DNA of 6,146 nt from a virus. Taxonomy: Duplodnaviria; Heunggongvirae; Uroviricota; Caudoviricetes. The notes under the pieces were generated by a model. It searched no databases and was not told the origin of the DNA. It was given only the letters and a program-made list of their open reading frames with translations. This document shows positions 4,097 to 5,273 of this stretch, piece by piece (position 1 is the first letter of the stretch; the number at the start of each line of letters is the position of its first letter). The position numbers and the translations under genes were made by a program. The stretch is taken from IMG/VR virus record IMGVR_UViG_2706794681_000014, one strand, 5' to 3'.

Positions 4097-4136
4097 ATCG
4101 TTATAACGAATTTACCACAGATTCCGGAAAAATCAA
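4097..4136 (-). promoter_or_regulatory. pR'-like late promoter with sigma70-dependent promoter-proximal pause element (Q engagement site)
   Basis: Minus strand: -35 TTGATT (4136-4131), 16-bp spacer, extended -10 TGG-TAAATT (4117-4109), then 6 nt (CGTTAT) and AACGAT-GGG (4102-4094). The TAAATT(6 nt)AACGAT-GGG arrangement matches lambda pR' and its pause-inducing element as I recall them. It sits immediately downstream of the Q ORF. Confidence 0.55.
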
Positions 4137-4161
4137 CCTTGTTACCTAGTTACCTTTTTTA
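4125..4161. repeat. direct repeat copy 1 (37 bp) abutting the 5' side of masked block 4162-4442
   Basis: CGGAAAAATCAACCT-TGTTACCT-AGTTACCTTTTTTA; equals copy 2 plus an 8-nt internal insertion/duplication (TGTTACCT). Contains the pR' -35 element. Confidence 0.7.
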
Positions 4162-5273
4162 NNNNNNNNNNNNNNNNNNNNNNNNNNNNNNNNNNNNNNN
4201 NNNNNNNNNNNNNNNNNNNNNNNNNNNNNNNNNNNNNNNNNNNNNNNNNNNNNNNNNNNNNNNNNNNNNNNNNNNNNNNNNNNNNNNNNNNNNNNNNNNN
4301 NNNNNNNNNNNNNNNNNNNNNNNNNNNNNNNNNNNNNNNNNNNNNNNNNNNNNNNNNNNNNNNNNNNNNNNNNNNNNNNNNNNNNNNNNNNNNNNNNNNN
4401 NNNNNNNNNNNNNNNNNNNNNNNNNNNNNNNNNNNNNNNNNNCGGAAAAATCAACCTAGTTACCTTTTTTAACTGCCGCTCAGCCCATGCTTCTTCAATA
4501 TCAAACCGAGTCACCAGCGCATCATAGAATTTCTTAACTGTTTTTTCCCATGACGCGCGTGTTATCTGGTTTGTCACCTCGCATATAGCATTAAATGCCT
4601 CCGTTGATGGTAGTCTTTCATAGCCACGACCACCACAACGCTGGCAGTCTCTGATAACAGGCATACCACGTTTTACCGACTCTTCACGATGAATGGCGAC
4701 ACCACGCCCACGGCAATCCTTACAGGCGGTGGAAACCTCACCCTTTCCGCCACACTCCGGACAGGCAACTTTTACCACCTCCCTGACTTTTTTCCATTCT
4801 TCCCAGTAAGACGGATACACACCTTTCGTACACTTTGCCCATACCGGCGGCTTACCATCCGGATACTGGACCTTGTTTGTAAAAACTACGCTTTCAATAA
4901 ATTTTTCCCCATAGCAACAAGGGCACTGCTTTTTACTCGCTGCGCTGCGGGCATAATCCTCAAAAGCGTACGAAGCCATAATGCGCATCACTACCGGTTT
5001 TATTTCTGCCGGAAGTTTTCTCAACGCCGCCACACGATCGCACCGACTGAGTGCATAATCTGCCAGTAATTCTGTTGCCCGCGCCCTGTCATTCATACTG
5101 ATGCCCATTTTCCCCAGGAACGCAGAAAACCCCATCTCAGCCCGATTCTGTGTCATGCCCTGCGCGGCCATCACATCAGTGATACTCAGCGCATCTTTTG
5201 ACGTTGAGGCCGATGCATCGGTCAGGCAAGGGGATTTTGGGGAGTAGTATTTCGGTAAATCTTCCAGTTTCAT
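4146..5273 (-). CDS. Q: late-gene antitermination protein Q (zinc-finger Q family); 3' end undetermined because of N-mask
   Basis: ATG at 5273 overlaps the rusA stop (ATGA), the canonical rusA-Q adjacency. 277 aa are visible (5273-4443), with two CxxCxGxG DnaJ-like zinc-finger motifs (CPECGGKG, CQRCGGRG) plus CKDCRGRG. The pR'-like promoter lies immediately downstream. The ORF runs into masked block 4162-4442; the stop at 4146 is only the track's nominal end and the true stop may be inside the mask. Confidence 0.65.
   Translation of the reverse strand: MKLEDLPKYYSPKSPCLTDASASTSKDALSITDVMAAQGMTQNRAEMGFSAFLGKMGISMNDRARATELLADYALSRCDRVAALRKLPAEIKPVVMRIMASYAFEDYARSAASKKQCPCCYGEKFIESVVFTNKVQYPDGKPPVWAKCTKGVYPSYWEEWKKVREVVKVACPECGGKGEVSTACKDCRGRGVAIHREESVKRGMPVIRDCQRCGGRGYERLPSTEAFNAICEVTNQITRASWEKTVKKFYDALVTRFDIEEAWAERQLKKVTRLIFPXXXXXXXXXXXXXXXXXXXXXXXXXXXXXXXXXXXXXXXXXXXXXXXXXXXXXXXXXXXXXXXXXXXXXXXXXXXXXXXXXXXXXXXXXXXXXXKKGN
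4443..4471. repeat. direct repeat copy 2 (29 bp) abutting the 3' side of masked block 4162-4442
   Basis: CGGAAAAATCAACCTAGTTACCTTTTTTA; identical to copy 1 apart from the 8-nt indel. On the minus strand it encodes the last visible Q residues (LKKVTRLIFP). Confidence 0.7.

Follow-up and report, generated by a model that had tools for sequence, protein, structure and literature searches.

The two near-identical direct repeats that bracket the run of 281 N at positions 4162-4442 are most probably two allelic versions of one site, the end of a Q-type antiterminator gene with its late promoter (the Q-end/pR' site), standing on either side of an assembly gap. The window, as we call the whole 6,146-nt stretch of DNA that was analysed, holds the site twice; in all relatives it is single-copy, the two flanks of the N run are alleles of different prophage modules, and neither the lengths of the N runs nor the order of the blocks in the window is reliable. 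The locus itself is an ordinary, already annotated lambdoid Q-pR'-tR' late-control module.

There are four N runs in the window (1685-1942, 2003-2213, 3351-3599, and 4162-4442), the last of which is abutted by both repeats. The sequence CGGAAAAATCAACCT[TGTTACCT]AGTTACCTTTTTTA is present at 4125-4161 and again, minus the bracketed 8 nt, at 4443-4471. Copy 1 (37 nt, plus strand; CGGAAAAATCAACCT + TGTTACCT + AGTTACCT + TTTTTA) forms the right end of the left-hand block and has two 8-nt units, TGTTACCT at 4140-4147 and AGTTACCT at 4148-4155 (two-unit allele), whereas copy 2 (29 nt, plus strand; CGGAAAAATCAACCT + AGTTACCT + TTTTTA) forms the left end of the right-hand block and has the single unit AGTTACCT at 4458-4465 (one-unit allele). 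Both halves of the repeat are exact, with a 15-mer at 4125 and 4443 and an 18-mer at 4144 and 4454, for each of which 200 dinucleotide-preserving shuffles gave an expectation of 0 chance matches. The sequence-only reading had described near-identical 29/37-bp direct repeats bracketing the N run and an 8-nt indel that is itself a local tandem duplication, and both descriptions hold: the units TGTTACCT and AGTTACCT differ at 1 base, and the indel is therefore a copy-number difference of a local tandem unit. Copy 1 is identical to the sole copy in the loci L001 and L036; copy 2 has exact matches in six IMG/VR contigs and in the fetched loci of 10 complete chromosomes, including that of Shigella sonnei 53G. 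Template and variable repeats of the kind found in diversity-generating retroelements were set aside on reading alone, since the window shows no evident reverse transcriptase gene and what distinguishes the copies is an indel rather than substitutions specific to adenine.

Judged by its resemblance to lambda, the repeat appears to be the 3' end of Q overlapping the -35 element of a lambda-like late promoter. The putative pR' (4097-4136, minus strand) comprises a -35 element TTGATT (4131-4136), a 16-nt spacer, a -10 element TAAATT (4109-4114), 6 nt, AACGAT (4097-4102), and GGG. Read side by side, the minus-strand layout TTGATT-16-TAAATT-6-AACGATGGG corresponds to TTGACT-17-TAAATT-6-AACGATGGG of lambda pR', with the -10 element, AACGATGGG, and the 6-nt spacing identical and the -35 element TTGATT in place of TTGACT. 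A promoter that overlaps the Q 3' end and is accompanied by a -10-like pause element is thus recognizable, by sequence resemblance only; a generic sigma-70 promoter scan (at least 9 of 12 matches) made no call at pR'. About 45 nt downstream of the pause element lies a predicted tR'-like intrinsic terminator (4042-4061, minus strand), consisting of a GC-rich hairpin and a T run read from 4061 to 4042, and Rfam gave no match within 4020-4471. With TTGATT at 4131-4136 of the minus strand in the -35 position, the earlier placement of the repeats at the Q 3' end/pR' junction, with the -35 element in copy 1, is borne out. The arrangement is like that of lambda, in which the antiterminator gene is directly followed by a promoter and a short terminated transcript, although the terminated leader in the window is much shorter than that of lambda.

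The visible part of the Q gene extends over 4443-5273 on the minus strand, starting at 5273, and copy 2 lies inside it, as the sequence-only reading had it and as the reading frame confirms. The predicted protein combines a PF03589 region with a DnaJ-type zinc-finger region. The PF03589 (Antiterm) match (E = 7e-55, residues 178-265) is found alike in the 273-aa and 284-aa forms described below and identifies the gene as that of a Q-family antiterminator, the remaining component of a lambdoid late-control module; lambda Q, by comparison, has 207 aa (624-nt coding sequence). The window Q allele is of the quuQ-like type (match H111), in which it departs from Stx-converting and related lambdoid phages.

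The number of 8-nt units at the Q stop codon, one or two, switches Q between 284 and 273 aa. In the two-unit allele, the extra unit brings a TAA at 4142-4144 (minus strand) into frame (ACT AGG TAA), which gives the 273-aa Q; Q is annotated with this length (822 nt) in L001, the 273-aa form is annotated in many other records, and the translation from L036 likewise has 273 aa. In the one-unit allele, the Q frame continues through the promoter (…RLIFPESVVNSS) to a TAA located 24 nt past the 5' end of copy 2, which gives 284 aa. The true Q stop, held earlier to be beyond resolution under the masked sequence, can thus be placed for either allele. The switch leaves the Antiterm domain, which ends at residue 265, and the promoter spacing untouched; unlike in lambda, the Q frame ends inside the promoter (273-aa form) or beyond it (284-aa form). 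The site is present in 1,235 of 5,426 complete Escherichia coli genomes, approximately 1,136 of which have two units and 4 a single TGTTACCT unit; the form with a single AGTTACCT unit was found in 0 of the 1,235 and is known from six IMG/VR contigs and from S. sonnei-type chromosomes. Both possible one-unit deletions therefore occur, the TGTTACCT form in the 4 E. coli genomes and the AGTTACCT form in the S. sonnei-type chromosomes.

Outside the window, the site was found in single copy wherever it was examined. The closest E. coli records cover a 1601-nt query with 1291-1293 nt, that is, they are 310 nt shorter, and the shortfall equals 281 N plus one 29-nt copy. Among the anchor pairs placed in the fetched loci, 53 of 54 are shorter than in the window by 310 nt (two-unit subjects) or 318 nt (one-unit subjects), and the sole exceptional pair links two separate contigs of the related draft L009. 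Every one of the 1,235 complete E. coli genomes with the site lacks an insert there. L036 matches 3600-4161 at 100% identity and 4454-6146 at 99.88%, and there the two adjoin without a break. A gapped two-copy pattern, GTTACCTTTTTTA-N{266,296}-CGGAAAAATCAACCT, in which one copy's end and another's start stand 266-296 arbitrary bases apart, had 0 matches in the viral_contigs, genome_contigs, and metagenome_contigs collections, as did a stricter version of the pattern. An exact 43-nt string across copy 2 had 6 matches in viral_contigs, every one of them single-copy, and 0 in genome_contigs.

The first of the readings proposed from the sequence was a tandem duplication of about 310 bp spanning the Q C-terminus and pR'. 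Had a real tandem duplication or an illegitimate recombination joint arisen here, with the N run faithfully masking about 281 nt, the masked sequence would consist of a Q 3' fragment after copy 1 and of pR'/tR'/tRNA' sequence before copy 2, and two late promoter/terminator units, derived from two different alleles, would lie about 310-318 nt apart. The visible text fits this for any split of the 281 nt and with no need for the ends of the mask to coincide with anything, and the copies are indeed different alleles; moreover, were the N runs deliberate masks of real sequence, the homology could continue under the mask, and a true duplication of as much as about 310 nt would leave the same visible text. 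Yet the two-copy arrangement was found in no independent contiguous sequence across the three collections, the 53 of 54 anchor pairs, and the 1,235 genomes, it is missing from all relatives, and it would require a crossover between non-homologous positions. We regard this account as unlikely; a comparison with related Q-pR' regions had been suggested, and in the relatives the site occurs once.

The second proposal, a small repeat-flanked insertion, is likewise unsupported, as relatives carry nothing between the copies. Had a foreign element of some 281 nt entered at the Q stop, with a 29-nt target duplication or att-like core repeats on either side, the single-copy relatives would resemble empty sites. 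The flanking repeats are, however, not identical, since the 8-nt indel sets them apart, and each corresponds to a separate pre-existing allele that occurs together with its own flank; no filled site was found elsewhere in the viral, genome, and metagenome collections, and the mask would need to coincide exactly with the element. Transposable elements rarely make target duplications as long as 29 nt, and an element bearing an integrase would not fit into 281 nt. An insertion is accordingly the least credible of the explanations, and we consider it highly improbable.

The flanks of the N run belong to two different prophage modules. We refer to the module composed of tRNAs, a DNA methylase gene, a 65-aa gene, tR', pR', the two-unit allele, and the 273-aa Q as A/C-type, and to that composed of a degenerate tRNA region, tR', pR', the one-unit allele, and the 284-aa Q as B-type. 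The left-hand block (3600-4161, minus strand) is A/C-type: it contains the 65-aa gene, tR', pR', and the final codons of the Q allele that encodes 273 aa, is identical throughout to L036, and there passes directly into Q with no insert. The right-hand block (4443-6146) is B-type; it has the one-unit allele and, at 4509 and 4527, SNP states of its own. Looking up the RusA gene of the window (5270-5644, minus strand) by exact sequence led to 10 complete chromosomes, including HE616528.1 (S. sonnei 53G), in all of which window positions 1-1684 and 4443-6146 are each 99.9-100% identical and lie 427 nt apart. The 427-nt link consists of a degenerate tRNA region, tR', and the same pR', followed directly by the one-unit allele, and includes no methylase module. 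In the window, these 427 nt are replaced by the centre, 1685-4442, which runs in the order 258 N, a 60-nt island, 211 N, tRNAs, methylase, 249 N, 65-aa gene, tR', pR', copy 1, and 281 N. The cryptic lambdoid prophage locus of S. sonnei 53G (HE616528.1, 1318304-1325678) is thus like the right flank of the window in having the one-unit AGTTACCT allele and a 284-aa Q, and differs in that the two stretches joined there by 427 nt are 2758 positions apart in the window, separated by the four N runs, the 60-nt island, and the methylase-type module. The 427-nt junction between the two ends of the window in 10 complete S. sonnei-type chromosome loci argues further against a duplication.

The methylase-type module, for its part, is intact in L035, L041, and L036, where it is followed by the two-unit allele. 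The Q gene after this allele differs from the window Q at 4509 and 4527 in all three loci and, in L035 and L041, additionally differs densely from 4871 onward, the window Q having the other state at 4509, at 4527, and at the divergent positions from 4871. The related draft L009 has both modules, each on a contig of its own, with single-N scaffold joins, and related drafts break within the Q gene, at 4501 and 4870. The two blocks that meet at the N run thus come from different copies of a repeated locus, and the repeat that abuts both ends of the run corresponds to homologous block ends, both as expected of an assembly artefact. As to the Q gene itself, the two paralogues are identical over 4528-4870 and diverge by about 6% from 4871; contigs of related drafts end exactly at 4870, and in L005 and L008 the one-unit allele goes together with the divergent Q body. 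The position 4870/4871 is a mosaic boundary within the Q gene.

The third proposal, a recombination joint between different Q/pR' alleles, stands in part: the copies are different alleles, as it required, but a physical joint between them is unsupported and the flanks come from modules that are located apart in related genomes. Hybrids between the modules are found in the related contigs L005 and L007, which speaks for a rearrangement of this kind; in L007, the one-unit allele follows an A-type left flank, and natural or assembled hybrids of these modules therefore exist. In its most specific form, in which the 281 N hide real sequence and the source is a Shigella/E. coli prophage with two tandem Q-end/pR' units about 310 nt apart and of different alleles, we consider the rearrangement quite unlikely. 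If true, it would represent a fresh illegitimate joint between co-resident prophages that places two late promoters in series, and the 284-aa form of Q would read into the first of the two.

There are irregularities elsewhere in the window as well. The N run at 3351-3599 has 249 N, compared with 238 nt in 45 of 45 relatives, some of which are 100% identical on both sides; these 238 nt are plain coding sequence for the methylase N-terminus, and the 11-nt excess would frameshift the gene. The N-run lengths here are therefore not those of real sequence, and the same comparison speaks against the premise that the run between the repeats faithfully masks 281 real bases. The 60-nt island (1943-2002), flanked by two N runs, follows 1684 in the window, whereas the exact 60-mer lies about 5 nt before the homologue of 853-1077 in all fetched loci that carry both. 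The S. sonnei-type chromosomes have about 52 nt, and no island, between 1684 and the tRNA region. The block that begins at 2214 opens with a tRNA-Arg bearing the B-type base at 2217 and then continues as methylase type; its start is what an assembly path through a 73-nt identical repeat would give. N-run lengths and a block order at odds with real sequence are further marks of an assembly artefact. A duplication at the Q end would need, in addition, unprecedented indels in two other N runs with 100% identical flanks (249 versus 238 nt and 211 versus approximately 266 nt), as well as a displaced 60-nt island.

A different use of the N runs was also weighed, namely that they are masks applied by the preparer of the sequence, with lengths not preserved, over a real nesting of an A-type module inside a B-type locus. 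Three of the four runs would then cover second copies (of STnc100, of the tRNA' region, and of the Q-end/pR' site), and masked stretches are mentioned for one sequence collection. Conversely, beneath the third N run lies plain methylase coding sequence, of which the window has no second copy, the nesting is seen in no complete genome, and scaffolds typically show features such as the unmasked 60-nt island between N runs; we judge this explanation very unlikely. Masking of toxin genes as the origin of the N runs downstream of the tRNAs was rejected, since the 529 positions available there could not accommodate an stx operon, which is about 1.2 kb long.

We infer instead that the N run at 4162-4442 is a gap introduced by an assembler or scaffolder. 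Under unmerged contig ends as the preferred explanation, the window would be a draft-assembly scaffold from an S. sonnei-like strain with at least two related lambdoid late-control modules, both of which the source strain presumably carries. The block ending at 4161 would be an A/C-type contig that reaches 37 nt into the common Q-end/pR' site, and the block starting at 4443 a B-type contig that begins 29 nt into the same site. In homologous coordinates the two contig ends would overlap, but they would have remained unmerged because the 8-nt unit differs, with the N run left between them. The direct repeat would then be one site written twice, and the 281 N would not represent 281 real bases. 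The explanation has weak points. The estimate of +281 for the gap would miss a true distance of about -29 by a wide margin, and no single k-mer overlap suits both block ends, one lying 18 nt beyond the last allele-specific base and the other 15 nt ahead of it. A single de Bruijn k-mer size for the block ends, which imply k of about 19 and about 16, is inconsistent with them and was not used as evidence.

Configurations of this kind have been described. In "duplicated overlapping contigs," adjacent contig ends align with each other with small indels between them (Kelley and Salzberg 2010, PMC2864568), and false duplications at scaffold gaps have been reported as well (Ko et al. 2022, PMC9516828). 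The window shares with the former the adjoining block ends that align, the small indel, the gap between, and the look of a recent duplication. The described class concerns the two haplotypes of diploid genomes, whereas here a haploid bacterium would carry the two versions as paralogous prophage copies; the overlap in the window, unlike in that class, is only 29-37 nt.

The gene content around the site is that of Stx-converting and related lambdoid phages, with which the window shares the order RusA, Q, 65-aa gene, DNA methylase, and three tRNAs; unlike those of Stx-converting phages, its tRNAs are followed by no visible toxin genes. The 65-aa hypothetical gene (3720-3917, minus strand) lies in a region that matches many Stx2 phages and phiP27 at 90-97%. 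A weak resemblance of its product to a TrmB-like winged helix (E = 0.0026) falls below the Pfam cut-off; in phage phiP27 the annotation reads TrmB-family regulator, and the protein is extremely widespread, occurring in 32,001 blocks of the contig index. The DNA methylase gene (minus strand) is partly masked. The three tRNA genes (2212-2459, minus strand) are Arg(tct), Arg(tcg), and a tRNA with a CAT anticodon, assigned to Met by ARAGORN and to Ile by the RefSeq annotation of relatives; we take them to be a cluster of the same kind as ileZ-argN-argO of Stx phages. An Rfam match to the small RNA STnc100 was found at 847-1036 (minus strand, 132 bits). A second STnc100 copy, 96-98% identical, directly follows the 60-nt island in the methylase-type module of relatives and would fall under the N run at 2003-2213 in the window. 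Finally, positions 1-103 of the window recur elsewhere in the related contigs L035, L041, and L009 and, in the S. sonnei loci, overlap an IS3-family transposase gene at its end; they are probably an insertion-sequence end, a further source of assembly breaks.

Short direct repeats that abut an N run, in a source with several related lambdoid prophages, have the look of unmerged contig ends and should not be taken as duplications, insertions, or recombination joints. The sole biological point to retain from the locus is the one-unit/two-unit polymorphism that switches the C-terminus of Q.
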